Source: an uncultured Spirochaetota bacterium
GTDB lineage: Bacteria; Spirochaetota; Brevinematia; Brevinematales; JAOACQ01
Length of the DNA stretch: 64,000 bases
Direction of reading: 5' to 3'
Assembly (NCBI GenBank): GCA_963835575.1
Contig: CAWIGG010000002.1
Coordinates: 198,141 to 262,140, forward strand
Shown: positions 3,755 to 29,156 of the stretch, one piece after another
Layout of the letters: every line of letters begins with the position of its first letter
Numbering within the stretch: the first letter of the stretch is position 1
Made by a program: the position numbers and the translations under genes
The notes under the pieces: generated by a model
Database searches by the model: none
Told to the model about the DNA's origin: nothing
What the model saw: only the letters and a program-made list of their open reading frames with translations

Positions 3755-5596
3755 ATGATAAAGAGAAACAAAGTGAAACTAATTTTATTAGGTTTAGGTG
3801 CAATGTTTTTTGTTCTCCAGTTTTCTACCTGCTCATTACAGTCTAATCAGGAAACTGGACAGCAAAACAATACGACGGCTGTCAATACACAGAAAGCCAC
3901 GGTTTCCAGCGTCGGGCGTCTGACAGGCGTCAACTGGTTCGGATTTGAAACCGGAAACTTCTGTCCCCATGGTCTCTGGTCCAGAGACTATAAATCCATG
4001 TTGAAGCAGATCAAAGACCTCGGTTTTAACTGTATTCGTATGCCCTGGTGCAACGATATGCTGTCGGCAACTCCCAACAGCATACAGATCAACGCTTCAG
4101 GCGTGGACGCGTACACAGGTCAGACCGGCCTGAACATGGACCTGGCCGGACTTTCTTCAATCCAGGTAATGGACAAGGTAATCGATGAGGCAACCAGGGT
4201 CGACGGTATAAAGATCATCCTGGACAACCATTCAAAGACACATGACAACTATAATAATGAAACATTATGGTACACATCATCCTGTTCGGAAAGCCAGGGT
4301 ATTTCGGATTGGCTTACTCTAATCAACCGTTATAAGAATAACGCGTATGTTTGCGGGGCCGATCTGAAGAACAAGCCTCATGGCAATATGACTACAGGTA
4401 TGAGACCGCCTGCGACCTGGGGTTATGATGAACCCGGTCAGGGAACGACAGACTGGAAAGCGGCCGCCGAAAGGATCGGTACCGCCATCCTTAACGCCAA
4501 TCCCAATATGATCATCATCGTGGAAGGCGTGGAATGCTATTACAATTATCCTACGGATACTGTTACCAACTTCTTCTGGTGGGGCGGCGAATTATCAGGT
4601 GTTGCAGACCATCCTATCACTGCTATTCCTTCTGCCCAGCTGATGTATTCTGTTCATGAGTACGGTCCCGAAGTCTATAATCAGTCCTGGTTCCAGGATT
4701 CCACATTCCCGAACAATATGCCTGCCATCTGGGACAAACATTACTATTTTATTAAAAAGAATGGCATAGGCTCTCTGTTCTTCGGTGAATTCGGCATAAC
4801 GGAATCCGCAGTAGAAGCCGGCGGAGTGGCAGCCACATGGTATAAGAACTTTATGGCATATATCGGAACCGCCAACAGCTGGACATTCTGGTGCATCAAC
4901 CCGGATTCCGGCGACACCGGCGGTATATTACAGAACAACTGGGTTACTGTAGAGCCGTCTAAATACGCGGTTTTGAAACCCTATCTGGCCGCTCAATTCT
5001 CGCCTCTCGGCGGAGCAAGTTCATCTTCATCCTCTACTGTATCTTCAGTTGCTGCGAGTTCGAGCCGGGCAGCATCCTCAGTGGCAGTCAGTTCGAGCAG
5101 ATCGAGCGCAGCTTCTTCAGTCGCTGCAAGCTCCAGCCGGGCCGCATCCAGCGTTGCTTCATCTATAGCCGCTAGTTCACGGTCCAGTGTTGCTTCTTCT
5201 GCAGCGGTTAGTTCGAGCCGGTCGAGCGCCGCATCCAGCGCCGCGGCTTCCAGTACTGCCGCTTCATCAGGCGGCGGATATGCTGTTAATTATACGGTTA
5301 ATAATGACTGGGGCGCAGGCGCCACATGCACGGTGACCGTTAAGAACAACAGCGCTACGGCTGTAAATGGATGGTCCTTAGTATGGACTTACGCTGGCAA
5401 TCAGACGCTGACGCAGATTTGGAACGCCACATATACCGCAAGCGGAGAGACCATTACCGTCACAAACGCAAGCTTTAACAATGTCATAAGCGTAAACGGC
5501 GGGACGCAGAGCTTCGGCTTCAATCTGAGCTACAGCGGGTCCAATGCAAAACCGGCTTCGTTCACTTTGAACGGAACGGCTTGCACAACATACTAA
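3755..5596 (+). CDS. GH5 cellulase-type lipoprotein - Ser linker - CBM2-like; acid/base Glu replaced by Lys
   Basis: AGGAGG RBS. Signal ending FSTC|S. GVNWFGFETGNFCPHGLWSRDYKSMLKQIKDLGFNCIRMPW. DLKNKPHG where paralogues have DLKNEPHG. Nucleophile region FFGEFG retained. Confidence 0.85.
   Translation: MIKRNKVKLILLGLGAMFFVLQFSTCSLQSNQETGQQNNTTAVNTQKATVSSVGRLTGVNWFGFETGNFCPHGLWSRDYKSMLKQIKDLGFNCIRMPWCNDMLSATPNSIQINASGVDAYTGQTGLNMDLAGLSSIQVMDKVIDEATRVDGIKIILDNHSKTHDNYNNETLWYTSSCSESQGISDWLTLINRYKNNAYVCGADLKNKPHGNMTTGMRPPATWGYDEPGQGTTDWKAAAERIGTAILNANPNMIIIVEGVECYYNYPTDTVTNFFWWGGELSGVADHPITAIPSAQLMYSVHEYGPEVYNQSWFQDSTFPNNMPAIWDKHYYFIKKNGIGSLFFGEFGITESAVEAGGVAATWYKNFMAYIGTANSWTFWCINPDSGDTGGILQNNWVTVEPSKYAVLKPYLAAQFSPLGGASSSSSSTVSSVAASSSRAASSVAVSSSRSSAASSVAASSSRAASSVASSIAASSRSSVASSAAVSSSRSSAASSAAASSTAASSGGGYAVNYTVNNDWGAGATCTVTVKNNSATAVNGWSLVWTYAGNQTLTQIWNATYTASGETITVTNASFNNVISVNGGTQSFGFNLSYSGSNAKPASFTLNGTACTTY
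5016..5269 (+). repeat. Ser-rich linker-coding degenerate tandem repeat
   Basis: ASSSSSSTVSSVAASSSRAASSVAVSSSRSS... up to GGGY. Confidence 0.8.
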
Positions 5597-7964: not shown

Positions 7965-10781
7965 ATGAAGAAGGTCTTTGCAATGGTTTTAGTGATAATG
8001 GCATACCTGATTATAACAGCTTGTCAGGTAATGGTTTTCAATCATGATGAGACTATTCATGATAGAATAGGGAGCAAGGCCCTCCTTTCCAACGGAATTC
8101 CAACCGTGGCATGGGTTAAGGATATTAATGCGGGAGGCTATATCGACGGCGCGTCCATCGGCGGTTTCGGCGCGGGCACGATCACTCTTCGCTTTGATGG
8201 AAATTTTTACAGAGGAAGGCTGAATATCAGCGAGAGTAATATGACTGTCGATACAAGCTGTAACTTTTATATATACCAGAAGCCGTCCGGGCAGAGCGCC
8301 GTATTTAAAAAGCTTAACGCTGCGACTCTTGGTTCGGGCCAGGCAAATTATTATTCTCTCTTTCCGGTTTCCTGGGTTGATTATTATGGAAGCGCATTCA
8401 CGGCCAAAGTCAAAGTTAAGCAGTTCAGTCCGATCATTCCCGGCGACTACCAGAGAACAAGCTATCCGGTGGGCATTTATGTCTGGTCTATCTCGAATCC
8501 GACCAGTTCTCCATGCGATGTGGCCATCATGCTGACCTGGAACAATAATTTCAGCGGCAGTACGGCTGCGGCTTTTGTTTCTAATAATAATAAAGGCATC
8601 ATTTTACAGAGGAGCGGCACTTCGGCCGCCGCTGAAAAGAACCAGGGAGAGTTTACCCTGGCCTCCCAGGAACAAACCGGAGTTTCCGTCACATATGAAT
8701 CGGCGACAGCGGTCTCAACCCTGGAAAATGATTTCTCGACAAACGGCACTCTCAAAAATTCAACGGGCAGCCATACCAACGGCGCTGTTGCTTTCAAAGT
8801 AACGCTTGCTGCCGGTCAGTCCATAAATATTCCCATCGTCCTGGCATGGGATATTCCGATTGTCCAGCTGGGGAACAAGTGGTACAGGGAATACACCAGG
8901 TATTTCAGCCGTTCAGGACTGAATTCCTCCGCGATTGCGAATGAGGCTCTCAATAATTATACGGCCTGGCAGTCGTCTGTGGACAGCTGGCAGAATAACA
9001 TCATCAACAGTTCGGTATACCCGGATTGGCTGAAGACAACGCTCTTCAACGAACTCTATTATTATTTTGTAGGCGGGACAATCTGGGAGGCCGGAGCCGC
9101 TTCGGGCCAGGCTGATAACGCAAGCGAGGATATGTTCAGTCACATGGAATGCTACGATTACGCTTTTTACGGCACATCGGACGTCCGGTTCTACGGTTCG
9201 TGGCCTCTGGCATTGCTCTGGCCTAACCTGGATAAACAGGCCGTGAAGCAGTTCAGCGACAGCATCTATAATAATAGAAGCGACCGCCCGGCGGCGCTGG
9301 GCACATGCGCGCATGATTTCGGGACAACAAACAATGTCTTTACAATATGGAACGCTTATACATACAGGGATTCCACAACCTGGAAGGATCTTAATTCCAA
9401 GTTTGTCCTGATGGTTTACAGGGATTATGTCCTGACGGGCAAAAGCGACACGACATTCCTGAATTACTGCTGGACGTCCGTCAAAACGGCGATGACCAAG
9501 GTCAAGGGACAGGATACGGATTCCGACGGCCTTCCAAATTCCACTGGAATCGATCAGACTTATGATGATATGAGCCTCTCCGGCAATACGGCCTACTGCG
9601 GAAGCCTCTTCCTTGCGGCATGTCTTGCCGCCAAGCAGATCGCGCTGGCAATGGGAGATTCTTCAACCGCAAGCACCTACCAGTCCTGGTATGACCAGGG
9701 CAAGGCCAGCTTTGAATCCAAGCTCTGGAACGGTTCCTACTATAATATAGATACCGGCAGTTCGGCGACAAACAGGATCATGAGCGATCAGCTTTGCGGT
9801 GAGTGGTACGCAAAAGCGCTTGGTCTGGGTAATATTCTGGACAGTTCTCATATTTCGAGCGCTTTCACCGTGATCTATCAGAACAACTTTAAAAAATTCG
9901 ACAGCGGTACGCATGGTGTGGTCAATGTCATGACAAGCAGCGGTTCGATTGACAGCACAAGCTCCCAGACACGGGAGATGTGGGTCGGGACTGCCTGGGG
10001 CGTTACGGCGGGAATGATCCAGGAGGGATTGACATCGCAGGCGTCCGAGATCGGGAACAGCCTTTACAGTACGATCTATTTGAACAATCAGCTCTATTTC
10101 AGGACGCCGGAAGCCTGGCAGTCGGGGGTCTCATCTATAAGGGCTTATTATTATATGAGAGCCAATGCCGTTTGGGCTGTCAAATACGCTTATGATAACG
10201 CCGGAACACCGGCCAGCTCATCCTCATCAATCAGTTCGAGCGTTATATCGAGTGCGGCATCATCAACAGCTGTCAGTTCAAGTCTGTCTAGCGCTGCTTC
10301 ATCAACAGCAGTAAGCTCGAGCCGCTCAAGCGTTGCATCGTCAGTTGCGGTCAGTTCGAGCAGATCGAGCGTTGCATCGTCAGTTGCAGTCAGTTCGAGC
10401 CGGGCCGCATCCAGTGCGGCTGCGAGCGTTGCTTCCAGTACAGCCGCTTCATCAGGCGGCGGTTATGCTGTTAATTATACCGTCAATAACGATTGGGGCG
10501 CGGGCGCTACATGCACAGTTACTGTAAAGAACAATAGCGCAACAGCAGTAAACGGCTGGACCTTAGTATGGACATTCGCAGGTAATCAAACTCTGACACA
10601 GATATGGAACGCTGCATATACCGCAAGCGGAGAGACCATTACCGTCACAAACGCAAGCTTTAACAATGTCATAGGCGCGAACGGCGGGACGCAGAGCTTT
10701 GGTTTCAATTTGAGCTACAGCGGATCCAATGCAAAACCGGCTTCGTTCACTTTGAACGGAACGGCCTGCTCAGTTTATTAA
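7965..10781 (+). CDS. GH116 (GBA2-type beta-glucosidase family) lipoprotein - Ser linker - CBM2-like
   Basis: GAGGAG RBS before ATG 7965. Signal ending ITAC|Q. IGGFGAGTI; HMECYDYAFYGTSDVRFYGSWPLALLWP; GLPNSTGIDQTYDDMSLSGNTAYCGSLFLAACLAA, which matches the GH116 nucleophile and acid/base regions as I recall them. Confidence 0.8.
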   Translation: MKKVFAMVLVIMAYLIITACQVMVFNHDETIHDRIGSKALLSNGIPTVAWVKDINAGGYIDGASIGGFGAGTITLRFDGNFYRGRLNISESNMTVDTSCNFYIYQKPSGQSAVFKKLNAATLGSGQANYYSLFPVSWVDYYGSAFTAKVKVKQFSPIIPGDYQRTSYPVGIYVWSISNPTSSPCDVAIMLTWNNNFSGSTAAAFVSNNNKGIILQRSGTSAAAEKNQGEFTLASQEQTGVSVTYESATAVSTLENDFSTNGTLKNSTGSHTNGAVAFKVTLAAGQSINIPIVLAWDIPIVQLGNKWYREYTRYFSRSGLNSSAIANEALNNYTAWQSSVDSWQNNIINSSVYPDWLKTTLFNELYYYFVGGTIWEAGAASGQADNASEDMFSHMECYDYAFYGTSDVRFYGSWPLALLWPNLDKQAVKQFSDSIYNNRSDRPAALGTCAHDFGTTNNVFTIWNAYTYRDSTTWKDLNSKFVLMVYRDYVLTGKSDTTFLNYCWTSVKTAMTKVKGQDTDSDGLPNSTGIDQTYDDMSLSGNTAYCGSLFLAACLAAKQIALAMGDSSTASTYQSWYDQGKASFESKLWNGSYYNIDTGSSATNRIMSDQLCGEWYAKALGLGNILDSSHISSAFTVIYQNNFKKFDSGTHGVVNVMTSSGSIDSTSSQTREMWVGTAWGVTAGMIQEGLTSQASEIGNSLYSTIYLNNQLYFRTPEAWQSGVSSIRAYYYMRANAVWAVKYAYDNAGTPASSSSSISSSVISSAASSTAVSSSLSSAASSTAVSSSRSSVASSVAVSSSRSSVASSVAVSSSRAASSAAASVASSTAASSGGGYAVNYTVNNDWGAGATCTVTVKNNSATAVNGWTLVWTFAGNQTLTQIWNAAYTASGETITVTNASFNNVIGANGGTQSFGFNLSYSGSNAKPASFTLNGTACSVY
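10211..10454 (+). repeat. Ser-rich linker-coding degenerate tandem repeat
   Basis: Units 10308-10346 and 10347-10385 both encode AVSSSRSSVASSV but differ at 6 synonymous positions. Confidence 0.85.
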
Positions 10782-12172: not shown

Positions 12173-12246
12173 AAATTGAAGAACGGCAGTGCAATAGCCG
12201 GTTCGTTAAAGCAGAACATTGACACTGCAAAAAAATGACTGAATCA

Positions 12247-12277
12247 ACCTCCCTCTAAATCAGAGGGAGGTTTTTTT
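12247..12277 (+). terminator. Rho-independent terminator
   Basis: ACCTCCCTCT-aaatc-AGAGGGAGGT + TTTTTTT. Confidence 0.8.
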
Positions 12278-17874: not shown

Positions 17875-19845
17875 GTGAAAAATTCAAAATTCGCTTTGCT
17901 TTCAGGATTGATGCTATTGGTACTTCCATTATGTTTGACATGCAGCCTGAATATGTCAGGTAACAATGACAAAGGCGCCATTTCTGAAACAAGCGTGAAA
18001 AAAGCGACCACAGGTTTCTCCATCAGCGGCAGGAATCTGATTGACGCCAATGGCAATCAGTTCATTTTAAGAGGTATTGCCCATGCGCATGTCTGGTATG
18101 AGAGCCAGATTACCAATGCTTTGAGCGGCATCAAAAGCGTGGGTGCCAACTGCGTCAGGATTGTCCTGGGCTGCGGAGTCCAGTGGGGCCCGAATACAGC
18201 CGCCGATGTGTCCAATGTGATCGCATTATGCAAGGCAAACAGGCTGATCGGAATACTCGAAGTGCATGATACCACCGGTTACGGGGATGCCTCAGCGGCA
18301 TGCAGCCTGGCCACGGCGGTGACATACTGGCAGTCGATCAAGAGCGTCCTGGACGGACAGGAAAAATACATCATTATCAATATCGGGAATGAGCCGTACG
18401 GCAACAACAATGTCGCCAACTGGGTCGCTGATACGGAGAACGCTATTAAATCGATGAGAAGCGCCGGGTTCCAGCATACGCTGATGGTAGATGCTCCAAA
18501 TTGGGGGCAGGATTACTCTTTTATGATGCTGACCAATGCCACAGCGGTGTTTAATTCCGATGTGAACAAGAATACGATTCTCTCGGTACATATGTATGAA
18601 GTTTATCAAACCATCACACCCATTACAAATTATATAACTCAATTTATGGCCTTGAATCTTCCCCTTGTGATCGGCGAGTTTGGATGTTCAAATAACGGGC
18701 AATATGTGGATGCGGCCGATGTCATGGCGACAGCACAGTCGCAGGGAATCGGCTACATGGCCTGGTCCTGGTGTGGGAACAGCTCCCCAGTTCTGGATAT
18801 GGTCGTTAATTGGGATGCCAGCCAGTTGACGAGCTGGGGAAATATGGCGATTAACGGTGCCAACGGCATTAAAGCCACTGCTAAAGAATGCACGGTATTC
18901 AGCGGTGTATCATCCAGTTCGGTTTCCAGTATTTCGTCCGCCGTGAGCTCCAGCCGCTCGAGTGTCGCATCTTCAGTGGCTGTGAGTTCGAGCCTGTCCA
19001 GTATTGCTTCTTCAGTTGCTGTCAGCTCCAGCCAGGCGAGCAGTATAGCCAGTTCCGCTTCATCCTCAGTCCAGTATCAGAATATTACTCTTCCGTTCAG
19101 CTTTGACGGCGCGGGAGAATTATACTGGCAGACAAGCGGTACGATCACCAGCATGAATTCCTGGAATCTTGATGCGCTGGATGTGAATGGGACAAGCTTT
19201 AAAAATGTGTATGTCGCCGGAAGCAGCCTGCCCGCGAAACAGAATGGATACTACTACATTCACTATAAGGGGTCATATTCCTATAGTCATGTTGAAATTG
19301 CCGGCACATCAGGATCGGTGAGCAGCAGTTCGATAGCTGTCAGTTCCAGCCCGGCAAGCAGTGTCGCTTCTTCAATAGCGGCAAGCTCCAGCCGTGCAGC
19401 CTCTTCAATAGCAGCTAGCTCTAGCAGATCGAGTATTGCATCTTCAGTAGCAGTCAGCTCAAGCCTGGCCGCATCCAGTGTCGCTTCCAGTGCGGCATCG
19501 AGCACGGCTTCCAGCACAAGCGGCGGGTATGCAGTGAATTATACCGTCAATAATGACTGGGGCGCGGGCGCCACAGTCACGGTAACCATAAAGAACAATT
19601 CCGCAACGGCCCTTTCGAGCTGGTCTCTTGTCTGGACATTTGCGGGCAATCAGCAGATCACTCAGATCTGGAGCGCCACGCAGACAACCAGCGGCGCGAC
19701 CGTTACTGCGAATAGTTTAACTTATAACGGCGCGATCGGCGCGAACGGCGGGACGCAGAGTTTCGGCTTCAATTTGAACTACAGCGGCTCGAACGCCAAA
19801 CCGACGTCGTTTACTCTAAACGGGACGGCATGTACGCTCTATTAG
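17875..19845 (+). CDS. GH5 (subfamily-8-like) beta-mannanase - linker - X module - linker - CBM2-like; lipoprotein
   Basis: GTG start 5 nt after AAGGAGG, 48 nt after the previous stop (operonic). Signal ending LTC|S. FILRGIAHAHVWY, GANCVRIVL, ILEVHDTTG, INIGNEPYG, MVDAPNWGQD, VIGEFG. Confidence 0.8.
   Translation: MKNSKFALLSGLMLLVLPLCLTCSLNMSGNNDKGAISETSVKKATTGFSISGRNLIDANGNQFILRGIAHAHVWYESQITNALSGIKSVGANCVRIVLGCGVQWGPNTAADVSNVIALCKANRLIGILEVHDTTGYGDASAACSLATAVTYWQSIKSVLDGQEKYIIINIGNEPYGNNNVANWVADTENAIKSMRSAGFQHTLMVDAPNWGQDYSFMMLTNATAVFNSDVNKNTILSVHMYEVYQTITPITNYITQFMALNLPLVIGEFGCSNNGQYVDAADVMATAQSQGIGYMAWSWCGNSSPVLDMVVNWDASQLTSWGNMAINGANGIKATAKECTVFSGVSSSSVSSISSAVSSSRSSVASSVAVSSSLSSIASSVAVSSSQASSIASSASSSVQYQNITLPFSFDGAGELYWQTSGTITSMNSWNLDALDVNGTSFKNVYVAGSSLPAKQNGYYYIHYKGSYSYSHVEIAGTSGSVSSSSIAVSSSPASSVASSIAASSSRAASSIAASSSRSSIASSVAVSSSLAASSVASSAASSTASSTSGGYAVNYTVNNDWGAGATVTVTIKNNSATALSSWSLVWTFAGNQQITQIWSATQTTSGATVTANSLTYNGAIGANGGTQSFGFNLNYSGSNAKPTSFTLNGTACTLY
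18907..19068 (+). repeat. Ser-rich linker-coding repeat (linker 1)
   Basis: SSSSVSSISSAVSSSRSSVASSVAVSSSLSS... Confidence 0.75.
19069..19305 (+). other. Unassigned ~80-aa X module (putative carbohydrate-binding)
   Basis: VQYQNITLPFSFDGAGELYWQTSGTITSMNSWNLDALDVNGTSFKNVYVAGSSLPAKQNGYYYIHYKGSYSYSHVEIAG, bracketed by two linkers. Recurs at 34548 and 36720. Confidence 0.6.
19306..19521 (+). repeat. Ser-rich linker-coding repeat (linker 2)
   Basis: TSGSVSSSSIAVSSSPASSVASSIAASSSRAASS... Confidence 0.8.
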
Positions 19846-19905: not shown

Positions 19906-19945
19906 ATCCTCCCTCCGGATTTCGGAGGGAGGATTTTTTATTTTA
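19906..19945 (+). terminator. Rho-independent terminator
   Basis: ATCCTCCCTCCG-gattt-CGGAGGGAGGAT + TTTTTA. Near-duplicate of the terminator at 23446. Confidence 0.8.
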
Positions 19946-20066: not shown

Positions 20067-22460
20067 TTGGAAACTAAACAAAATCCCGGTAAAAAGGCGC
20101 TTCCCATATTGTTTACATTAGCGGGTTGTCTAATCCCTGTTTTTATTATTTTGATAGTCTATTCTATATACCGCATTCCGGAAAAAGATAAATCCAGCAT
20201 AATTCAATTGACCGGTGTCTGGAAAATTCAGGAAGGTTTAAACCCGGATTGGACCAGGCCGGGCCTGGATGATTCAGGCTGGAAAGAAATCAAATTACCC
20301 GGAAGCTTTTATAACCAGGGCTTTCATGAAAAGTACCTGACATTAAGAAAAGATTTTACTTTAAATACAAATATGGAAAACCAGGACCTGTTTTTATTCA
20401 TCGGCGGCACCGGCGGTTCAATGGGTATGGTTTATATGAACGGATTTAAAATCGGCGAAATCGGAATGATTGTGAACGGCAGAAAGACACAGGGGGCCGA
20501 TGAAAAATTCGGGTTTTATATTAATAAACATAATATCTTAAACGGGGCGGCCGATGTTAAAAATACAATCAGCATTGAATTTGATACTATAACGCCGAGC
20601 TATGACGGTGTGCAGGACCCAAGGATCCTTCTGGGTACCTACAATAGTTTAAGATCATATTATGAGAAAAATATTTCGGCAAGTTTGTTTTTTCAATACG
20701 GGATCATATTTACCGGCATATTTGCCCTGATCATTTTATTTTTACTTTTGATGACTGAATGGGGATCACCCAACCGCAATAAATATGTTTCTACCATATT
20801 CTTTGTGTTTTCGGCAATTTTATATAATTTATTTTTTACGAATGTTTTTGTCAGATATGTTTTTGATACAATATTACTATCCAAATTATTAATTTTATCG
20901 ATTGTTTTTTTATGCCCGGCAACCCTGGATTATGTCCAGTATTTCTTTACCAATAAGACGAATATATTGTCAAAAATAAACAGAGTGGTTTGTTTGCTTG
21001 TTGTTGTAATGGTTTTTGCCATTCAGGATTTTGTCATAGTCAAATTGATCCATGGCTATTTTATCATGTACTTTTTTGTTGTAATTGTATATATATGTGC
21101 CTTTTGTGTGGCCCATACTCTTAAAGCCCGGGAAAAGTACAATGCCGTTGTTATTACTGTTTCGATTATAATCGGCGCGGTTTCAGGTATTTCCGACCTG
21201 TTGACCAACTTGGGATTGATTCATATGCCGCTTTTATTCAGCATTACCATTTCCATTTTTATTGTGATGAGCGCCATGGTGATTATCGCTGATTTTATAA
21301 AGATCAGCGATTATAATAAAACACTTTCTCTGGAATTGAGCCAGTTGAACGTGAACCTTGAAGCCAAGGTTTCTGAAAGGACAAAGGAATTGAGCCAGGC
21401 CAATGAAAAACTGAAGAAGCTGGATACTGTTAAAAACGATTTTATTGCCAATATTACCCACGATTTCCGGTCTCCTCTCACAGTCATACTGAATACGGCG
21501 GATTTAAACTTAAAAGAACACAAAGACAATCCTTATAAAAGTGAATTTGAAATGATACTGTCTTCTTCCTACCGCATGAAAAATTATATTGACCGGCTTC
21601 TGGATTTAGCGAAGATGGATGCGGGGGCCATAAAACTAAAAATCAGAAAAACAGATATTGTACAATTTTTAGAAACAATCGCAAGTTATTATCAATCGGC
21701 GATAATAAATACCAACATCAAAATTATAACCAGTTTTCCTGAAATTCCGGTGGAAAATTTTTATACTGACGAGGAAAAATTGGATGAGGTAATCAGCAAT
21801 ATCCTGTCCAATGCGATCAAATATGTCAGTATTGAAAACGGGATTATAGAAATTGAGGTGAGAGATGAACCGGATACGGTCCTGATTATTATATCAGACA
21901 ATGGCATAGGAATACCTGAAGATAAACTGGAATTTATTTTTGAGAGGTTTGAACAGCTGGAAAGCGGGAGAAATACAAAATTCAGCGGGAGCGGGATCGG
22001 TCTTGCTTTTGCAAAACAGCTGGTGGAATTTATGAAAGGAAAAATATGGGCGGAATCGGGAGGTGAAAATAAGGGCTCCAGATTTATGATCAGGCTGCCG
22101 AGAGGCAAAGCCGCTTTTGATGATCAAGAAATTTCAACCGAATCAATGAAAGCGACATCCTTATCCCGTTTCAAGAAATTGGTAGAGTATGATATCGGTA
22201 GAAAAATTCAAAAAGAAGAACTGGAATTTTATATCAAGGAAAGAAATAAAGAAAACGAATTTGTCCTCAAAAAAAGCGTGATATTAATAATTGACGATGA
22301 AAAATCAATCGCCGGAATCGTGATGAACTATCTTCTAATCAATGGATTTGAAAACTTTATTATCGCTAATAACGGTAAAACCGGCCTGAAAGCCGTGTAT
22401 CAATACACGCCGGATGTCATATTGTGCGATTATAACATGCCCGGGGCTCACGGGCAGTGA
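20067..22460 (+). CDS. Sensor histidine kinase (7TMR-DISMED2-like sensor + 7 TM + HisKA + HATPase_c) with N-terminal half of a receiver domain; 5' part of a frameshifted hybrid gene
   Basis: TTG start. Extracytoplasmic LTGVWKIQEGLNPDWTRPGLDDSGWKEIKLPGSF...LTLRKDFTL. Multiple TM helices. H-box ANITHDFRSPLT. DNGIGIP, GSGIGLAFAKQLV. REC start VILIIDDEKS...DVILCDYNMPG, then a premature stop. Confidence 0.8.
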   Translation: METKQNPGKKALPILFTLAGCLIPVFIILIVYSIYRIPEKDKSSIIQLTGVWKIQEGLNPDWTRPGLDDSGWKEIKLPGSFYNQGFHEKYLTLRKDFTLNTNMENQDLFLFIGGTGGSMGMVYMNGFKIGEIGMIVNGRKTQGADEKFGFYINKHNILNGAADVKNTISIEFDTITPSYDGVQDPRILLGTYNSLRSYYEKNISASLFFQYGIIFTGIFALIILFLLLMTEWGSPNRNKYVSTIFFVFSAILYNLFFTNVFVRYVFDTILLSKLLILSIVFLCPATLDYVQYFFTNKTNILSKINRVVCLLVVVMVFAIQDFVIVKLIHGYFIMYFFVVIVYICAFCVAHTLKAREKYNAVVITVSIIIGAVSGISDLLTNLGLIHMPLLFSITISIFIVMSAMVIIADFIKISDYNKTLSLELSQLNVNLEAKVSERTKELSQANEKLKKLDTVKNDFIANITHDFRSPLTVILNTADLNLKEHKDNPYKSEFEMILSSSYRMKNYIDRLLDLAKMDAGAIKLKIRKTDIVQFLETIASYYQSAIINTNIKIITSFPEIPVENFYTDEEKLDEVISNILSNAIKYVSIENGIIEIEVRDEPDTVLIIISDNGIGIPEDKLEFIFERFEQLESGRNTKFSGSGIGLAFAKQLVEFMKGKIWAESGGENKGSRFMIRLPRGKAAFDDQEISTESMKATSLSRFKKLVEYDIGRKIQKEELEFYIKERNKENEFVLKKSVILIIDDEKSIAGIVMNYLLINGFENFIIANNGKTGLKAVYQYTPDVILCDYNMPGAHGQ

Positions 22461-23361
22461 AGTTCATGACGCGATAGTTGATAACCCGAAATACAATCAA
22501 ATTCCATTTATATTTTTGTCCGCTGTGGCGGATAGAAATTTAATTATTGAACGCAGGGAAAAAGGGGCAAATGCTTATTTAAAGAAACCGATAGATGAAA
22601 ATGATCTTGTGCTGACGGTAAATCTTCATCTGAAAAAATATTTTGAATATTTAAAAACCCTGGAGCTTGCGGCCATAGATGAACTAACAGGATTATACAA
22701 CAGGCGGGAAATCATCAAGCGGCTGCATGAAGAGCTGGCTGTCAGAAAATTTATGGAATTATCGCTTATATTTTTTGATGTAGACCATTTTAAAGAAATA
22801 AACGACCGGTACGGCCATCCCATCGGCGATCGGGTTTTAAGAACTATAGGAAGAATCATAAAAGGAAACCTCAGGCCCTATGATATATCGGCAAGATATG
22901 GAGGAGATGAGTTTCTGATAATCCTGCCTCAAACAAATTCGGAAAATGCCGTTCGGGTAGCGGAAATATTAAAAAAGAGTTTCGCCGAAGAAAAAATCCT
23001 TCAAAGTGAGAATGTTCTTGCTATTACCTGCAGTTTCGGTATTTCATCACTGATCGGCAACCAGAAAGACCTTGAAAAAGAACTGCATTTGAAGGATTTA
23101 AAAAAGATTTATGAGATAAAAGATTCCGCGAAAGCAGATTGGAAAATGATTCGGGAGACAAAAGAAAAGATTGCCGAAGTTCTAATAAGTTTTGCCGACA
23201 AAGCGCTTTATCAATCAAAAAAAACGGTGTGCGAAGACTGCGGATATTATTCTGAAAAAGAAGAAGATTTTCATAATAACAAATGCCCGAAATGCGGAAG
23301 TAAAAAACTGTCCGGCAGGAATAAAGTCAGTCTGTATTCGCATGATGAAAGCGCTGGTTAA
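22414..23361 (+). CDS. Rest of receiver domain + GGDEF diguanylate cyclase + C-terminal Cys4 zinc ribbon; 3' part of the frameshifted hybrid gene
   Basis: From 22447 reads LTGSEVHDAI...FIFLSAVAD...ANAYLKKP (REC continuation). FFDVDHFKEINDRYGHPIGDRVL, ARYGGDEFLIILP. CEDCGYY...CPKCGSKK. Confidence 0.8.
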   Translation: MSYCAIITCPGLTGSEVHDAIVDNPKYNQIPFIFLSAVADRNLIIERREKGANAYLKKPIDENDLVLTVNLHLKKYFEYLKTLELAAIDELTGLYNRREIIKRLHEELAVRKFMELSLIFFDVDHFKEINDRYGHPIGDRVLRTIGRIIKGNLRPYDISARYGGDEFLIILPQTNSENAVRVAEILKKSFAEEKILQSENVLAITCSFGISSLIGNQKDLEKELHLKDLKKIYEIKDSAKADWKMIRETKEKIAEVLISFADKALYQSKKTVCEDCGYYSEKEEDFHNNKCPKCGSKKLSGRNKVSLYSHDESAG

Positions 23362-23445
23362 AATGTAATATAAGCGACTTTTGATAAAAGAACAAATCAA
23401 AACGGACGTTCGATTTTCAAACAGCATACATAGGAAGTTGAATCA

Positions 23446-23480
23446 TCCTCCCTCCGTAATCCGGAGGGGGGATTTTTTTG
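23446..23480 (+). terminator. Rho-independent terminator (also the group IIC intron insertion site)
   Basis: TCCTCCCTCCG-taat-CCGGAGGGGGGA + TTTTTTTG. The intron 5' GTGCG begins 3 nt later. Confidence 0.8.
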
Positions 23481-23482
23481 TT

Positions 23483-24355
23483 GTGCGCCCGGCAGGGCGC
23501 ACGTTCTTGCGGGTGAAAGTCCCGTATGCACCCGGTAAGGGGAATCCCTCACCAGTTTGTGAACTTCTCCGGGCAGCCGGACAAACTGGTGAGGGACAGA
23601 CGGCAAGGGTGTCCGCCGTGAGGCGGAATCTGAAGGAAGCTGCAGGCAAAGCACTGGTCTGACGAACAGAAACCGCATAGAGGCGGCACTGCTGGGTGAG
23701 ACGGCAATTATCGTTAAAGCCCGATACTTACACAGAAAGCAATGGCGTAGATGCGGCAGACATAAGTGTGAAGGAACGAGCGCATTACCCGGGGAGGTCT
23801 GACAGCCTGCCACATATTGGCTATTGTCATCGAAAGGTGATAAGAGGGGTTTTCAGAAGTCAGCAGAAGCCATAGTAACCTCTTGACCGGAGGCGAAGGG
23901 CAGAACCAAACTATAGGAGTACCGCTATGAATCCTGACACGGTAACTTACGCAGAAGCGGAAGGAAACTTTCCGGCTTTGACAAAGGATAGGGACGGAAT
24001 TCCGAAGAATAGCCAAAGCGCGTGTATCCGTGCAGAGAGTCAAAGAAGGAGTACACCGGATGAAACAAATTTAATAGAGCGTCTGGTCAAACGCGAGAAC
24101 ATGCTGGAAGCTTATCACAGGGTGGTAAGCAATAAGGGGGCGGCGGGAGTTGACGGAGTCACTGTAAAACAGCTAAAAGGCTTCATCAACAAACATATGA
24201 ACATCGCCTTTCCTAAGAAATTATTCGACAGTATGGGACTCGTATCGATGCTGAACAAGATTTGTATTTATCAGAAATTATATTTTGGAACCGCCGTATA
24301 CGGAACCGTACGTACGGTGGTGTGAGAGGTCGGCGGGTGTAAACCCGCCTCCTAC
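23483..24355 (+). mobile_element. Group II intron, bacterial class C-like, with internally deleted IEP ORF
   Basis: 5' GTGCGCCCGG. Domain V hairpin CCGCCGTATACGG-AAC-CGTACGTACGGTGG (24291-24320) with a CGC triad and 2-nt bulge. Short domain VI ending ...CCTAC. Residual RT ORF. Position directly 3' of a terminator stem-loop. Confidence 0.75.
23927..24325 (+). pseudogene. Remnant of the intron-encoded reverse transcriptase/maturase (N-terminal RT0 region fused to the extreme C-terminus)
   Basis: LIERLVKRENMLEAYHRVVSNKGAAGVDGVTVKQLKGFINKH joins directly to ...FPKKLFDSMGLVSML...GTAVYGTVRTVV. RT domains 1-7 and X are absent. Confidence 0.7.
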
Positions 24356-24437
24356 TCAATTATTTTTTCTACAGGAAGATAAGAATGCTCCGGATGTCTT
24401 TTCATGTAATCTATCTTAAAAAATTTCTGTTAAGCAA

Positions 24438-24510
24438 AAAAACCATACCCAAAGTACTGTCAAATCCATACTCAAGGTTTGCCCTGTTTTAAAAAGCGGT
24501 TATTTATAAT
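24438..24510 (+). promoter_or_regulatory. Twin direct-repeat promoter motif upstream of GH9 gene
   Basis: AAAACCATACCCAAAGT (24439-24455) and AAATCCATACTCAAGGT (24462-24478) in 23-nt register. TATAAT 24505-24510. ATG 24555. Confidence 0.55.
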
Positions 24511-24554
24511 ATTAACCTATATATAATGTGGAATAATATAAATTAGGAGGAAAT

Positions 24555-27182
24555 ATGAAAACTATGAAGAGAAGTTTGCCATTATTATCATTACTGGTAG
24601 TTGTGTTCTTCTTTTTAATTTCGGCTTCCTGCTCCTTGTCATTTAAAAATGATAATAATTCAGGCGGTTCTTCCGGATTGAACTCCAATCCGTTAAAAGC
24701 TACATCTTTTAATTATACCGACGCTTTCGCCAAATCAATCCTGTTTTATGAGGCCAACTGGTGCGGGCCTGACGCCGGTTCAAACCGCCTTCCATGGAGA
24801 GGTCCCTGCCACACGAGCGACGGCGCGGATGTCGGGCTTGATCTCACAGGCGGTTTTCATGACTGCGGCGACCACGTCAAGTTCGGCCAGACCCAGGCTT
24901 ACGCCGCGTCCACGCTGGGCTGGGCATATTATGAATTCAAGGATGTGTTCGTTTCCAAGGGCCAGGACGTTTATATGCTTAAGATCCTGAAGCATTTTAC
25001 GGACTATTTCCTTAAGAGCTTTCCGAACGCGAACACGTTTTATTATGAGTGCGGAGACGGAACGACAGACCACGCTTACTGGGGCCCGCCCGAATTACAA
25101 ACGACTGCTATTACAACGCGTCCCACTCTTTATGTCGCTAATCCGACAACGCCGGGTTCCGATGTCTGCGGCGATACGGCTGCCGCTCTCGCTTTGATGT
25201 ACTTGAACTATCTGGACAAAGATTCGTCTTACGCGAACAAATGCCTCACTGCCGCGAAAAGCCTTTACACGCTGGGCAAAACCTATTTAGGCCTCAGCCA
25301 GGCCGGCGGATTTTACGCCCCAAGCGGCTACTGGGATGAACTGAGCTGGGGAGCCGTCTGGCTCTATCTGGCGACAACAAACACCAGTTATTTGAACGAT
25401 GTGTTGACTTTCATGTCAAATAAGAATATTACCGATTCCAATCCCTATAACAATCATTGGACGCATTGCTGGGACGATGTCTGGGGAGGAGTATTCGTTA
25501 AAATGGCGCAGATCACAAACAGGCCGCTCTTTAAATCAGTTGCGGAAGAAAATTTGAGCTACTGGATGACCGGCCTTACCAGAACGCCCGGCGGGCTCTG
25601 CTACCTGAACTCCTGGGGCAACTGCCGGTATGTCGCGGCCGAATGTATGCTGGCCCTTGTTTATAACAAAACGGCAACCAACCAGGCATACGCCGATTTC
25701 GCTAAATCACAGATCGACTATATTCTGGGCAATAACCCGCATAGTTATTCCTATGAAATCGGGTTCGGGACAAGCTATCCGAAGTTTCCTCACCACCGCG
25801 CGGCCAGCGGGCGTTTTGAGCATCAGCCTGCCAATGAGTCCAAGGATGATCCGGAAAGGCACCTTCTCTACGGCGCTCTTCCCGGCGGTCCGGATTCCAG
25901 CGATAATTACACCGATGATGTGGAACAATATGTTTACACCGAAGTCGGGATCGATTATAACGCCGGTCTTGTCGGGGCTCTGGCTGCCCTGACGAAAACA
26001 TACGGCGCCTCCCAGAGCCCTGAGGCTACTCCCGGCATTGAATCTACCAACGCGCCATGTTATGTCACCGCTTATGTGATGAATGAGGCCTCCGACCATT
26101 CGACAATCAGGGCGTTTTTCCACAATGATTCCGTGCTGCCGCCTCATTATGAAAATCAGCTGTCCTTCCGTTATTTCTTTAATTTAAGCGAATATTTCGC
26201 CCAGGGTCTGAACGCCAGTGCAGTAACCTCATCCATATTCTACTCGGCCTTAAGCGGAGGGACCCTGACTGCCCCGACCGTATGGGATGACGCGAATCAT
26301 ATATATTATGTTGAAGCCAGCATTGCCGGATCAGATTTGTACGGCAAAGCCGAATTTCAGTTCTCGCTGGCGTCCTACGGCGCCGCTATCTGGGATCCGT
26401 CCAATGATTTTTCCAGGACTGGGCTTTCAACTGCAACTAATGACATAATAGCAACCAATATTGCTGTTTATAGAAACGGCGTCAAAATATTCGGGAATGA
26501 GGCGCCCAAGGGCGCCACTTCCAGCAGTACGGCGTCTTCTGCTGCCGTCAGCTCGAGCCTGGCCGCATCCAGTGCGGCTTCAAGCGTTGCCAGCAGTGTT
26601 GCCTCATCGGCTGCTGTGAGTTCGAGCCTGGCCGCATCCAGCGTCGCTTCTTCTGCGGCAGTCAGTTCGAGCAGGTCTTCCGCAGCGAGCAGCGTGGTAT
26701 CCAGCGCCGCATCTTCAGCGGCTATCAGTTCCAGCAGATCAAGCGTAGCATCTTCTGCAGCGGTTAGCTCGAGCCGGTCGAGCGTCGCATCCTCTATTGC
26801 TGTGAGTTCGAGCCTGGCCGCATCCAGTGTTGCTTCCAGCACAGCTGCTTCATCCGGCAGCGGATACGCTGTTAATTATACTGTTAATAATGACTGGGGT
26901 GCGGGCGCTACATGCACAGTGACAATAAAGAACAATTCTGCCACAGCCCTTTCGAGCTGGTCTCTTGTCTGGACATTTGCGGGAAATCAGCAGATCACTC
27001 AGATCTGGAGCGCTGCGCAGACAACCAGCGGCGAGACAGTTACGGCCGTCAATCTCAGCTATAACGGCACGATCGGCGCGAGCGGCGGGACTCTGAGCTT
27101 CGGATTAAATTTAAGCTACAGCGGAGCGAACGCAAAGCCGACGGCGTTTACACTGAACGGGACGGCATGCACACTCTATTAA
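24555..27182 (+). CDS. GH9 endoglucanase - CBM3c - Ser linker - CBM2-like; lipoprotein
   Basis: AGGAGG RBS. Signal ending SASC|S. GGFHDCGDHVKFG, YVYTEVGIDYNAG, LSFRYFFNLSEY. Confidence 0.9.
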   Translation: MKTMKRSLPLLSLLVVVFFFLISASCSLSFKNDNNSGGSSGLNSNPLKATSFNYTDAFAKSILFYEANWCGPDAGSNRLPWRGPCHTSDGADVGLDLTGGFHDCGDHVKFGQTQAYAASTLGWAYYEFKDVFVSKGQDVYMLKILKHFTDYFLKSFPNANTFYYECGDGTTDHAYWGPPELQTTAITTRPTLYVANPTTPGSDVCGDTAAALALMYLNYLDKDSSYANKCLTAAKSLYTLGKTYLGLSQAGGFYAPSGYWDELSWGAVWLYLATTNTSYLNDVLTFMSNKNITDSNPYNNHWTHCWDDVWGGVFVKMAQITNRPLFKSVAEENLSYWMTGLTRTPGGLCYLNSWGNCRYVAAECMLALVYNKTATNQAYADFAKSQIDYILGNNPHSYSYEIGFGTSYPKFPHHRAASGRFEHQPANESKDDPERHLLYGALPGGPDSSDNYTDDVEQYVYTEVGIDYNAGLVGALAALTKTYGASQSPEATPGIESTNAPCYVTAYVMNEASDHSTIRAFFHNDSVLPPHYENQLSFRYFFNLSEYFAQGLNASAVTSSIFYSALSGGTLTAPTVWDDANHIYYVEASIAGSDLYGKAEFQFSLASYGAAIWDPSNDFSRTGLSTATNDIIATNIAVYRNGVKIFGNEAPKGATSSSTASSAAVSSSLAASSAASSVASSVASSAAVSSSLAASSVASSAAVSSSRSSAASSVVSSAASSAAISSSRSSVASSAAVSSSRSSVASSIAVSSSLAASSVASSTAASSGSGYAVNYTVNNDWGAGATCTVTIKNNSATALSSWSLVWTFAGNQQITQIWSAAQTTSGETVTAVNLSYNGTIGASGGTLSFGLNLSYSGANAKPTAFTLNGTACTLY
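26517..26855 (+). repeat. Ser-rich linker-coding degenerate tandem repeat (longest, ~115 codons)
   Basis: TSSSTASSAAVSSSLAASSAASSVASS...SSTAASS, counted from the translation. Confidence 0.8.
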
Positions 27183-27263: not shown

Positions 27264-29156
27264 ATGAACATGAGACAAAAATCACAATTATCAAAAAGTA
27301 TTATCCTGATTTTTCTGGCTTTAATAATGGGCTCCTGTACGGTTTTATCACCGGACCACGTTAATAGCGGCAGTCAGATAAATAATAATACTGAGAGAGC
27401 AACGGACATGAATAGTTTTGTCAAGACTTCCGGAACGCAGTTTGTCGTCAGCGGGAAAACTTTTTATTTTAACGGGGCCAACCAGTATTATCTGTTCTAC
27501 AAATCCCATGCCATGGTTACCGAGGTTATCACCGATGCCGCCGCTCTGGGACTTACCGTTATCAGGACCTGGGGTTTCTGCGACGGAGCGCCAAAGGACA
27601 ACAACTTCGGCTTCCAGCAGAGCGCCGGGGTTTATGATGAGGCGACATTCAAACAGATGGATTTTACGATCAATACCTGCAAACAATACGGCATCCGTCT
27701 GGTTATCCCGCTGGTCAATAACTGGGACGATATGGGCGGTATGGACCAGTATGTCATATGGGCAGGAGCTTCAGCTCATGACGATTTTTACACAAACGTG
27801 CAGTGCCGGACCCTTTATAAGAGCTATGTCAATTATTTTTTGAACAGGACGAATTCTATAACGGGAGTCGTGTATAAAAACGATCCCACCATCATGATGT
27901 GGGAACTGGCCAATGAGCCCCGCTGCGACAGCGACATGACCGGCATGAAGCTGAGCAACTGGATCAATGAAATGGCCGGTTATATCAAGAGCATCGATCA
28001 GAACCATCTGGTTTCGATCGGTTCAGAAGGATTTTTCAAGGGGGTCGGATACGGCTATCTTTATGACGGCTCTTCGGGATGTGATTTTGTCGGCCATAAC
28101 AGGATCCAGTATATTGACGCGTGTTCCGCTCATCTTTATCCATCCAGCTGGGGCATTTCCACGAACGATGCCGTCAACTGGATCATTATGGGGGCGACGA
28201 ACGCTCATGTCACAGTAGGCAAGCCGTATTATCTGGGTGAATTCGGTTATCCGGATCATACCGCGCGCAATCAGATTTATCAGGACTGGTACAATACGCT
28301 TTATGCTTACAACGCGGACGGGGCCATGTTCTGGCTTCTGAGCGGCCATCAGGATGACGGTTCCCTCTATCCGGACTATGACGGTTTTACCGTCTATTAT
28401 CCCCAGGACACAAATACATGCGCCGTTATATCGGCATACTCCGTCAAGGCAAACGCCGAAACCGGGCAAACCCCGGCTTCCGCGGCCAGCAGTACTGCTG
28501 TATCTTCTGTCAGTTCGAGCCGGTCTTCCAGCAGTGCGAGCAGCGCAGTTTCCTCGTCAGTCATTTCCAGCCGCTCGAGCTCGAGCGCGGCAATTTCATC
28601 GGCAGTCAGTTCGAGCCGGTCGAGCGTTGCATCCTCAATTGCCGTAAGTTCGAGCCATTCCAGTGCAGCTTCTTCTGCGGCTGTGAGTTCGAGCAGATCG
28701 AGCGTAGCATCTTCAGTTGCGGTAAGCTCCAGCCGGTCGAGCGTAGCTTCTTCAGCAGCAGTCAGCTCAAGCCTTGCCGCATCCAGTGTTGCAGCTTCTA
28801 GCGTGGCTTCCAGCACAGCAGTTTCATCAGGCAGCGGATATGCAGTTAATTACACCGTCAACAATGACTGGGGTGCGGGCGCAACATGCACAGTGACGAT
28901 TAAGAACAATAGCGCGACAGCCCTCAGCAGCTGGTCTCTTGTCTGGACTTTTGCAGGCAACCAGGCTATAACCCAGATATGGAGCGCCAGTCAGACTACC
29001 AGCGGTGAAACAGTGACTGCCGTGAATTTAAGCTACAACGGTACGATCGGCGCGAGCGGCGGGACTCAGAGCTTTGGCTTCAATCTGAGCTACAGCGGAT
29101 CCAATGCAAAACCGGCTTCGTTCACTTTGAATGGGTCGGCGTGCACGCTTTATTAA
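27264..29156 (+). CDS. GH5 (subfamily-7-like) beta-mannanase lipoprotein - Ser linker - CBM2-like
   Basis: ATG 27264 after GGGAGAAAAG. Signal ending IMGSC|T. FVKTSGTQFVVSGKTFYFNGANQYY, VIRTWGF, WELANEPRC, YYLGEFGYPD. Confidence 0.85.
   Translation: MNMRQKSQLSKSIILIFLALIMGSCTVLSPDHVNSGSQINNNTERATDMNSFVKTSGTQFVVSGKTFYFNGANQYYLFYKSHAMVTEVITDAAALGLTVIRTWGFCDGAPKDNNFGFQQSAGVYDEATFKQMDFTINTCKQYGIRLVIPLVNNWDDMGGMDQYVIWAGASAHDDFYTNVQCRTLYKSYVNYFLNRTNSITGVVYKNDPTIMMWELANEPRCDSDMTGMKLSNWINEMAGYIKSIDQNHLVSIGSEGFFKGVGYGYLYDGSSGCDFVGHNRIQYIDACSAHLYPSSWGISTNDAVNWIIMGATNAHVTVGKPYYLGEFGYPDHTARNQIYQDWYNTLYAYNADGAMFWLLSGHQDDGSLYPDYDGFTVYYPQDTNTCAVISAYSVKANAETGQTPASAASSTAVSSVSSSRSSSSASSAVSSSVISSRSSSSAAISSAVSSSRSSVASSIAVSSSHSSAASSAAVSSSRSSVASSVAVSSSRSSVASSAAVSSSLAASSVAASSVASSTAVSSGSGYAVNYTVNNDWGAGATCTVTIKNNSATALSSWSLVWTFAGNQAITQIWSASQTTSGETVTAVNLSYNGTIGASGGTQSFGFNLSYSGSNAKPASFTLNGSACTLY
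28476..28829 (+). repeat. Ser-rich linker-coding degenerate tandem repeat
   Basis: ASAASSTAVSSVSSSRSSSSASS... Confidence 0.8.

Follow-up and report, generated by a model that had tools for sequence, protein, structure and literature searches.

What occupies the spacer between a histidine kinase/GGDEF gene and a GH9 cellulase gene of a spirochaete, and can it still splice or move? The question is raised by a stretch of 64 kb from an uncultured Spirochaetota bacterium (contig CAWIGG010000002.1, positions 198,141 to 262,140), which is called the window below and whose first letter is position 1 of all coordinates. An earlier reading of the letters, here the original prediction, had placed a class C group II intron with an internally deleted reverse transcriptase (RT) gene in this spacer. 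Our analysis arrives at the same kind of element, with a probability of about 85%: a bacterial class C (IIC) group II intron with an in-frame deletion of 349 codons, inserted in sense orientation at the T-tract end of an intrinsic terminator. It follows the terminator of the histidine kinase/GGDEF gene and ends 195 nt upstream of the cellulase gene.

Identification and boundaries of the intron

An Rfam scan of the whole window yielded exactly three matches. They are colinear, lie on the plus strand and cover the full length of their models: RF02001 (group-II-D1D4-3, 141.7 bits, E 2.5e-29), RF01998 (group-II-D1D4-1, 66.3 bits) and RF00029 for domains V and VI (24289-24360, 49.7 bits). All three exceed the curated Rfam thresholds of 32, 35 and 40 bits, respectively. 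Because three colinear matches were obtained, the presence of a group II intron is beyond reasonable doubt, and the covariance-model check suggested with the original prediction came out in its favour, domains V and VI included. The same scan revealed neither a second group II intron nor any match to rRNA or tRNA in the 64 kb. The ribozyme is apparently undamaged: all its parts are present, and the Rfam scores are like those of full-length relatives.

The intron had been proposed to start with GTGCG directly behind the terminator. This is where it begins: position 23483 follows the terminator hairpin (ATCCTCCCTCCG-TAATC-CGGAGGGGGGAT) and its tail TTTTTTGTT. The accompanying statement that the insertion lies 3 nt after the terminator holds in part. 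Counted from the base of the stem the distance is 9 nt, and the insertion took place where the T-tract ends; the final 3 nt of this tract, GUU, are nevertheless those that pair with the intron (see below). The figure depends on which end of the terminator is chosen.

The 3' end had to be corrected. It was originally set at CCTAC, position 24355, but lies 5 nt beyond, at 24360 (…CCUACUCAAU). CCUAC is not the intron end: it forms the 3' strand of domain VI and contains the bulged branch-point A at 24354. The RF00029 alignment extends to 24360 and places the A of CCUAC in the domain VI bulge. The closest DNA relative found, a full-length intron of 1883 nt in a Spirochaetota metagenome-assembled genome (CAWCLF010000001.1; L001), is similar up to …CCTACTCTAT (window: CCTACTCAAT) and unrelated beyond. 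Two copies of a less closely related intron from Streptococcus (L002 and L003) are identical through …CCCCTACTCGAT plus one T and then diverge. A metagenome scan with a 41-nt query comprising domain V and the start of domain VI gave exact matches in at least 120 contigs. Nearly all of them read …YCCUACUCGAU followed by unrelated sequence, and the base after this motif varies (mostly T, also A, C and G). A 24-nt repeat from 24356 on (24356-24379 versus 27829-27852, 88%) was considered as a support for the original 3' end, 24355, and rejected as a chance match; it lies inside a coding region.

Domain V was seen as originally described, with a CGC triad, a GAAC loop and a 2-nt AC bulge, and agrees with the RF00029 alignment. 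It is identical to that of the at least 120 metagenomic copies. For domain VI, 55 of 57 distinct sequences adopt a fold in which the A at the seventh position from the 3' end bulges out between two helices, and the distal stem forms from widely differing sequences, depending on the copy. In the window, the branch point is followed by 6 nt up to the intron end, in conformity with the spacing rule of 6-7 nt (PMC4748821). The basal helix of domain VI comprises 4 bp, whereas most IIC introns have 3 bp (PMC4748821).

Pairing with the exons

Covariation between exon-binding sites (EBS) and intron-binding sites (IBS) was further examined in 30 aligned copies with both ends placeable, and exons were shuffled 5000 times among the copies. 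A BLAST search with the first 130 nt had reached the 5' end in only 8 copies and was replaced by a domain I anchor combined with the 5'-end motif. EBS1 and IBS1 are paired at 79 of 87 positions compared to 44.6 +/- 4.3 after shuffling, a value that none of the 5000 shuffles attained. EBS3 and IBS3 are paired in 28 of the 30 copies (21.6 after shuffling; one shuffle in 5000 as high). The partners change together: EBS1-IBS1 is AAU:GUU in the window and AUA:UAU in L001. For EBS3-IBS3, A:U is common, and U:A occurs in L001 and L083, U:G in L008, G:C in L079 and G:U in the window. Since both pairings covary, both splice sites are fixed independently of sequence similarity. Splicing is predicted to ligate the exons as …UUUUUUUGUU / UAUUUUUUC…, at 23482/24361.

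A strong hairpin immediately 5' of the splice site was found in 26 of 27 distinct 5' exons of relatives. This bears on the question, raised with the original prediction, of whether other copies also follow terminators of this sequence type. The prediction had also pointed to a near-duplicate terminator in the same window as an empty potential target. The two hairpins, 19906-19934 and 23445-23473, have a 41-nt stretch in common that is 90% identical and reaches 7 nt upstream of the stem, and 8 nt past the stem of the empty twin there is an AUU/U site that fits both EBS1 and EBS3 of the intron. Furthermore, the spacer behind the twin aligns colinearly with the intron-free spacer 23362-24554, across the insertion point (score 105 versus 34 +/- 5 for shuffled sequences, maximum 50). 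This paralogous spacer appears to be the nearest thing to an uninterrupted site that was obtained.

Loss of the protein gene

The intron contains a single long sense ORF (open reading frame), which encodes 132 aa and is located in domain IV. Residues 1-88 correspond to the N-terminal extension and RT motif 0 of an intron protein, residues 89-132 to the last 44 residues of such a protein. The final 12 residues (GTAVYGTVRTVV) are domain V read as protein. No Pfam domain was found in the ORF. A search with the conceptually repaired protein of L001 identified an intact protein of 481 aa, P0165, from which the ORF differs by the absence of residues 89-437. The 88 and 44 flanking residues (P0165 1-88 and 438-481) are 100% identical. 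Both domains of P0165, RVT_1 (113-319) and GIIM (336-410), fall wholly into the gap. In the DNA of L001, ~1045 additional nt occupy the point where the window has its junction. A full-length ancestor would have had ~1925 nt.

This means, the comparison with full-length copies defines the deletion as the loss of 349 residues or 1047 nt, and the structure proposed for the ORF is borne out by exact matches to P0165 on both sides: an RT N-terminus is joined directly to about 40 C-terminal maturase residues, and RT domains 1-7 and X are gone. Only RT motif 0 is retained. Because the RT and maturase domains are lost, the element is non-autonomous, as had been suggested. A recent date of the deletion is probable, given that what is retained matches the full-length protein at 100% identity.

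When compared with the PDB, the remnant ORF matched only RTs (5HHJ, 7UIM and 6AR1, the latter labelled GsI-IIC RT). P0165 scored 473 bits with GsI-IIC RT and 373 with the group II intron RT/maturase 7UIM; LtrA from class IIA (147 bits) and the maturase reverse transcriptase 6ME0 (121) scored lower. We take 5HHJ and 7UIM to be IIC RTs, 7UIM from Eubacterium rectale, and 6ME0 to be a IIB protein. The ribozyme, in turn, presumably resembles the crystallised intron of Oceanobacillus iheyensis closely. The parent protein P0165, with RVT_1 and GIIM only and lacking an endonuclease domain, appears to belong to the class C lineage.

Assignment to class C

Class IIC introns are small, carry a CGC triad, a domain V distal stem that is 2 bp shorter than in IIA and IIB introns, and an 11-nt AGGAA bulge. 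They use EBS3 as IIB introns do, an EBS1-IBS1 pairing of 3-4 bp and no EBS2. A terminator stem-loop replaces IBS2, and the splice site lies 3-11 nt past the stem (PMC1702495). Each feature of this definition that was checked, that is all but the absence of EBS2, was found in the window intron. The class originally proposed is thus confirmed by the CGC triad, the short domain V, the AGGAA bulge, the 3-bp EBS1-IBS1 and the EBS3-IBS3 pairing, and the terminator context (Table 1).

Among the known members, B.h.I1 of Bacillus halodurans and O.i.I1 of O. iheyensis have the CGC triad, the 3-bp distal stem and the AGGAA bulge in common with the window intron (PMC1702495, PMC4748821). The likeness extends to the 3-bp EBS1-IBS1 pairing, EBS3-IBS3, the insertion a few nt past a terminator hairpin and a bulged A in domain VI that precedes the 3' end by 6 nt. 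P0165, the parent protein, is likewise composed of RVT_1 and GIIM only and matches IIC RTs best. In contrast to these two, the window intron has an ORF made of two protein ends and a ~43-nt hairpin in domain I.

Table 1. Intron, insertion site and empty twin terminator in the window (a slash marks a splice site or deletion junction)
Feature	Position	Strand	Evidence and remarks
Complete group IIC intron, most of the protein gene gone (deltaORF)	23483-24360 (878 nt)	+	Rfam, alignment with L001, 3' ends of relatives, covariation
Terminator-type hairpin in the 5' exon, 12 bp, 8 G-C	23445-23473	+	Terminator scan; occupies the IBS2 place of IIA/IIB introns
T-tract TTTTTTGTT	23474-23482	+	Last 3 nt, GUU (23480-23482), are IBS1
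5' splice-site consensus GUGCG (GUGYG sequence)	23483-23487	+	Relatives start GUGCG, GUGUG or GUUYG at the homologous position
Stable domain I hairpin, 50 nt, -32.9 kcal/mol	23546-23595	+	Alignment and fold
Domain I core	23612-23782	+	RF02001; holds the 11-nt bulge, EBS1 loop and EBS3
11-nt bulge AUCUGAAGGAA (AGGAA)	23628-23638	+	Unpaired in the RF02001 alignment
EBS1 loop GCAAUUAU	23704-23711	+	EBS1 is AAU (23706-23708); pairs with GUU 23480-23482
EBS3, G23750 in the motif GUA-N-AUG	23750	+	Covariation with the first 3'-exon base
Region matched by RF01998	23821-23901	+	66.3 bits
Remnant ORF in domain IV, 132 aa	23927-24325	+	Only long sense ORF; AGGAG ribosome-binding site 7 nt upstream
Deletion junction ATCAAC/AAACAT	24190/24191	+	1047 nt (349 codons) absent compared with P0165
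Domain V, 30 nt	24291-24320	+	CCGCC base (CGC triad), 9-bp basal stem, AC bulge, 3-bp distal stem, GAAC loop
Domain VI	24323-24358	+	Bulged branch-point A 24354; basal helix 4 bp (UGAG/CUCA); final AU follows
IBS3, U, first nt of the 3' exon	24361	+	G-U wobble with EBS3 G23750
Paralogous unoccupied terminator, hairpin 19906-19934	19906-19943	+	Compatible site AUU/U at 19940-19942/19943

Relatives and recurrent loss of the protein gene

L001 is 83-88% identical to the window intron on the nucleotide level, over the ribozyme and both ORF ends. It is also located 8 nt past a terminator-like hairpin, and its EBS1 (AUA) and EBS3 (U) have changed along with its own flanks (UAU/A). It differs from the window intron in that the domain I hairpin insertion is absent. 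Its protein gene contains two frameshifts and an in-frame TAG; the degenerate gene (4001-5445) is accompanied by an intact ribozyme behind its own terminator. The frameshifts and the stop could be Nanopore errors or real decay.

The distance between domains I and V was determined in 47 metagenomic copies with enough upstream sequence: 43 were full-length, and 4 were short. Two of the short ones, L109 (~4329-4955, minus strand) and L037 (~8131-8743, minus strand), are complete ORF-less IIC introns of ~620 nt with full Rfam matches, each directly behind its own terminator hairpin. The 5' end of L109 is unusual, reading GGUAUG or GUAUG. In addition, the protein databases contain independently deleted intron proteins with other junctions (P0018, P0027 and P0111). 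Short copies and proteins with different junctions indicate that loss of the protein gene recurs in this lineage.

ORF-less introns are rare in bacteria and nearly always reside in genomes with related introns, whose proteins possibly act in trans (PMC4424553); in the Zimmerly database they are listed as 'ORF-less' (PMC8919778). The window intron may fit the pattern described in PMC4424553. Like ORF-less introns and those with a degenerate intron-encoded protein, it combines an intact ribozyme with the lack of a working RT or maturase. Related introns likewise occur: one, encoding the frameshifted P0167, on the same contig, and one encoding P0165, with identical ORF ends, on a contig of 486,560 bp. 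A protein acting in trans is the expected mode for both. What sets the window intron apart is that its deletion is precisely defined and probably recent, with flanks 100% identical to a full-length protein. Furthermore, it keeps an open in-frame remnant, whereas L109 and L037 have lost the ORF wholly.

Some other copies are less complete. L002 and L003 (3703-5366) from Streptococcus sp. Marseille-Q5986 are IIC-like and 99.8% identical, only from 3703 on. RF02001 has no match in either of them. In L003, a terminator followed by GTGTATAGGG is situated ~200 nt upstream of the shared part. These two copies may be 5'-truncated or mosaic. In the L104 copy and in one of two L074 copies, the similarity ends in the middle of domain VI; they look like 3'-truncated or rearranged copies.

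Present state and possible fate

With the loss of 349 codons from domain IV in one in-frame deletion, the intron has been stripped of its entire coding region for RT and maturase. Efficient splicing and any retromobility would then depend on a class C protein that a full-length sibling, for instance the P0165 intron, provides in trans. With an intact ribozyme and an intact 5' part of domain IV, the intron should still be a substrate for such a protein. Given its position between genes and past a terminator, it is probably rarely transcribed and near neutral for the host.

Several observations do not sit easily with a complete IIC intron served by a sibling at this site. A search for homologues of the GH9 neighbour yielded same-contig paralogues of ~70% identity and distant relatives only, and no orthologous uninterrupted site. 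The domain I hairpin results from a ~43-nt insertion not present in 8 aligned relatives, which have a short UAGCY loop there instead. (The idea that this hairpin is a repeat or small mobile element was dropped, as neither the window nor 124 loci yielded a second copy.) Sites compatible with EBS1 and EBS3 also occur at seven other terminator-like hairpins of the window, and all of them are empty, the twin included. P0167, the sibling protein recorded on the 2,045,547-bp contig that also carries the window ORF, has a maturase domain (GIIM) shortened by a frameshift; this 409-aa protein belongs to a diverged sibling intron, and an independent read-level contig gives the same sequence. Intact P0165, finally, is encoded on a separate contig of 486,560 bp.

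The emptiness of seven compatible sites fits low or no current mobility, so that the same ORF-deleted IIC intron may be an inert fossil, recently disabled, neither spliced nor mobilised at present and awaiting decay. We regard this as a serious contender that falls somewhat short of an even chance. In its favour, the protein genes of related copies decay, as in L001, with its frameshifts and TAG, and in P0167. The ribozyme does not: its RF02001 score equals the level of the best relative, and its domain V is shared with at least 120 copies. In addition, an intact parent protein, P0165, exists. A further argument against a fossil is P0001, a twin 132-aa ORF with the same 349-residue deletion and one substitution (A72V) on another large contig (1,066,873 bp). 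This twin is at the same time an argument for the opposite, an actively propagating non-autonomous mini-intron whose short form is moved by the protein of a sibling in trans, similar to miniature inverted-repeat transposable elements. Homologues of the GH9 neighbour with at least 90% identity were not seen outside the contig of the window, which hints at a different context of P0001, and the independent ORF-less relatives L109 and L037 lie behind other terminators in metagenomes. However, P0001 may be the orthologous locus of a sister strain or of a second assembly, and there is one copy in 64 kb despite compatible empty sites. We consider active propagation unlikely, albeit worth keeping in mind, and give more weight to the recently disabled fossil. 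Since P0001, on another large contig, shares the junction and differs by one substitution, it is conceivable, if rather doubtful, that a sibling's protein has already copied the deleted form, deletion included, to one or more other terminators. A Spirochaete-type genome would then have been caught at the birth of a miniature IIC family.

Two further explanations concern the deletion itself, and we rate both as very improbable. The 132-aa fusion might be under selection, e.g. as an RNA-binding or regulatory fragment, with selection maintaining the in-frame junction. The deletion is indeed exactly in frame and has left the ribosome-binding site and the start codon in place; but one third of random deletions are in frame, the ORF lacks a Pfam domain, and its last 12 residues are merely translated domain V. 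Moreover, P0018, P0027 and P0111 have different junctions, L109 and L037 have no such ORF, and a set of many diverged copies that conserve this junction and show an excess of synonymous changes was not found. Alternatively, the intron might in truth be full-length, and the deletion might have arisen when the assembly collapsed or was joined wrongly. Introns present in repeated copies are a frequent cause of broken or confused assemblies, and many metagenome contigs end inside these introns. Here, by contrast, the junction is clean and in frame, and two large contigs each encode the 132-aa product, in slightly different versions.

Terminators and neighbouring genes

The terminator with the intron belongs to a family of three in the window (12246-12272, 19906-19934 and 23445-23473) that have the form TGAATCAnCCTCCCTC…GAGGGAGG plus a T-run. 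The spacers behind the second and the third align over ~160 nt. Terminator and spacer look like a repeated module partly associated with paralogous cellulase genes. The GH9/CBM3/CBM2 cellulase gene downstream of the intron (24555-27182) and the gene ending at ~19845 have a 300-nt stretch of 82% identity in common (19000-19800 and 26520-27120), and both carry arrays of Ser/Ala-rich linker repeats. Two more GH9 paralogues (P0290 and P0291; ~70% identity) are encoded on the same contig. Inside the intron, a weak sigma-70-like match (CTGACA-17-TATTGT, 23799-23827, plus strand) is directed toward the GH9 gene; it is a consensus match only. IIC-attC introns are known to carry outward-facing promoters (PMC3001079).

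Upstream of the intron, a receiver domain is divided between two overlapping ORFs: a histidine kinase ORF of 797 aa (20067-22460) has the first half at its end, and a GGDEF ORF of 315 aa (22414-23361) has the second half at its start (Pfam Response_reg 1-57 and 53-110). The overlap 22414-22460 reads …DYNMPGLTGSEV… in the other frame, and it contains the G-run CCCGGGG at 22440-22446. Because the receiver halves join in the other frame, a hybrid kinase-receiver-GGDEF gene appears to be split by one extra G. This can be either a real frameshift or a sequencing error.

Conclusions

As a natural case, the intron neatly illustrates a type of degenerate mobile element that is known but uncommon. It is not surprising and leaves current understanding unchallenged. 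For the annotation of the genome it means that the 132-aa ORF represents the two ends of an intron protein and not a gene of unknown function, and that the spacer upstream of the GH9 cellulase gene houses an 878-nt ribozyme. For intron biology, it provides a clean case of protein-gene loss by one in-frame deletion of 1047 nt with a known parent protein. With both exon-binding pairs known and a matching empty target 3.5 kb away, it would be a convenient substrate for tests of mobilisation in trans.

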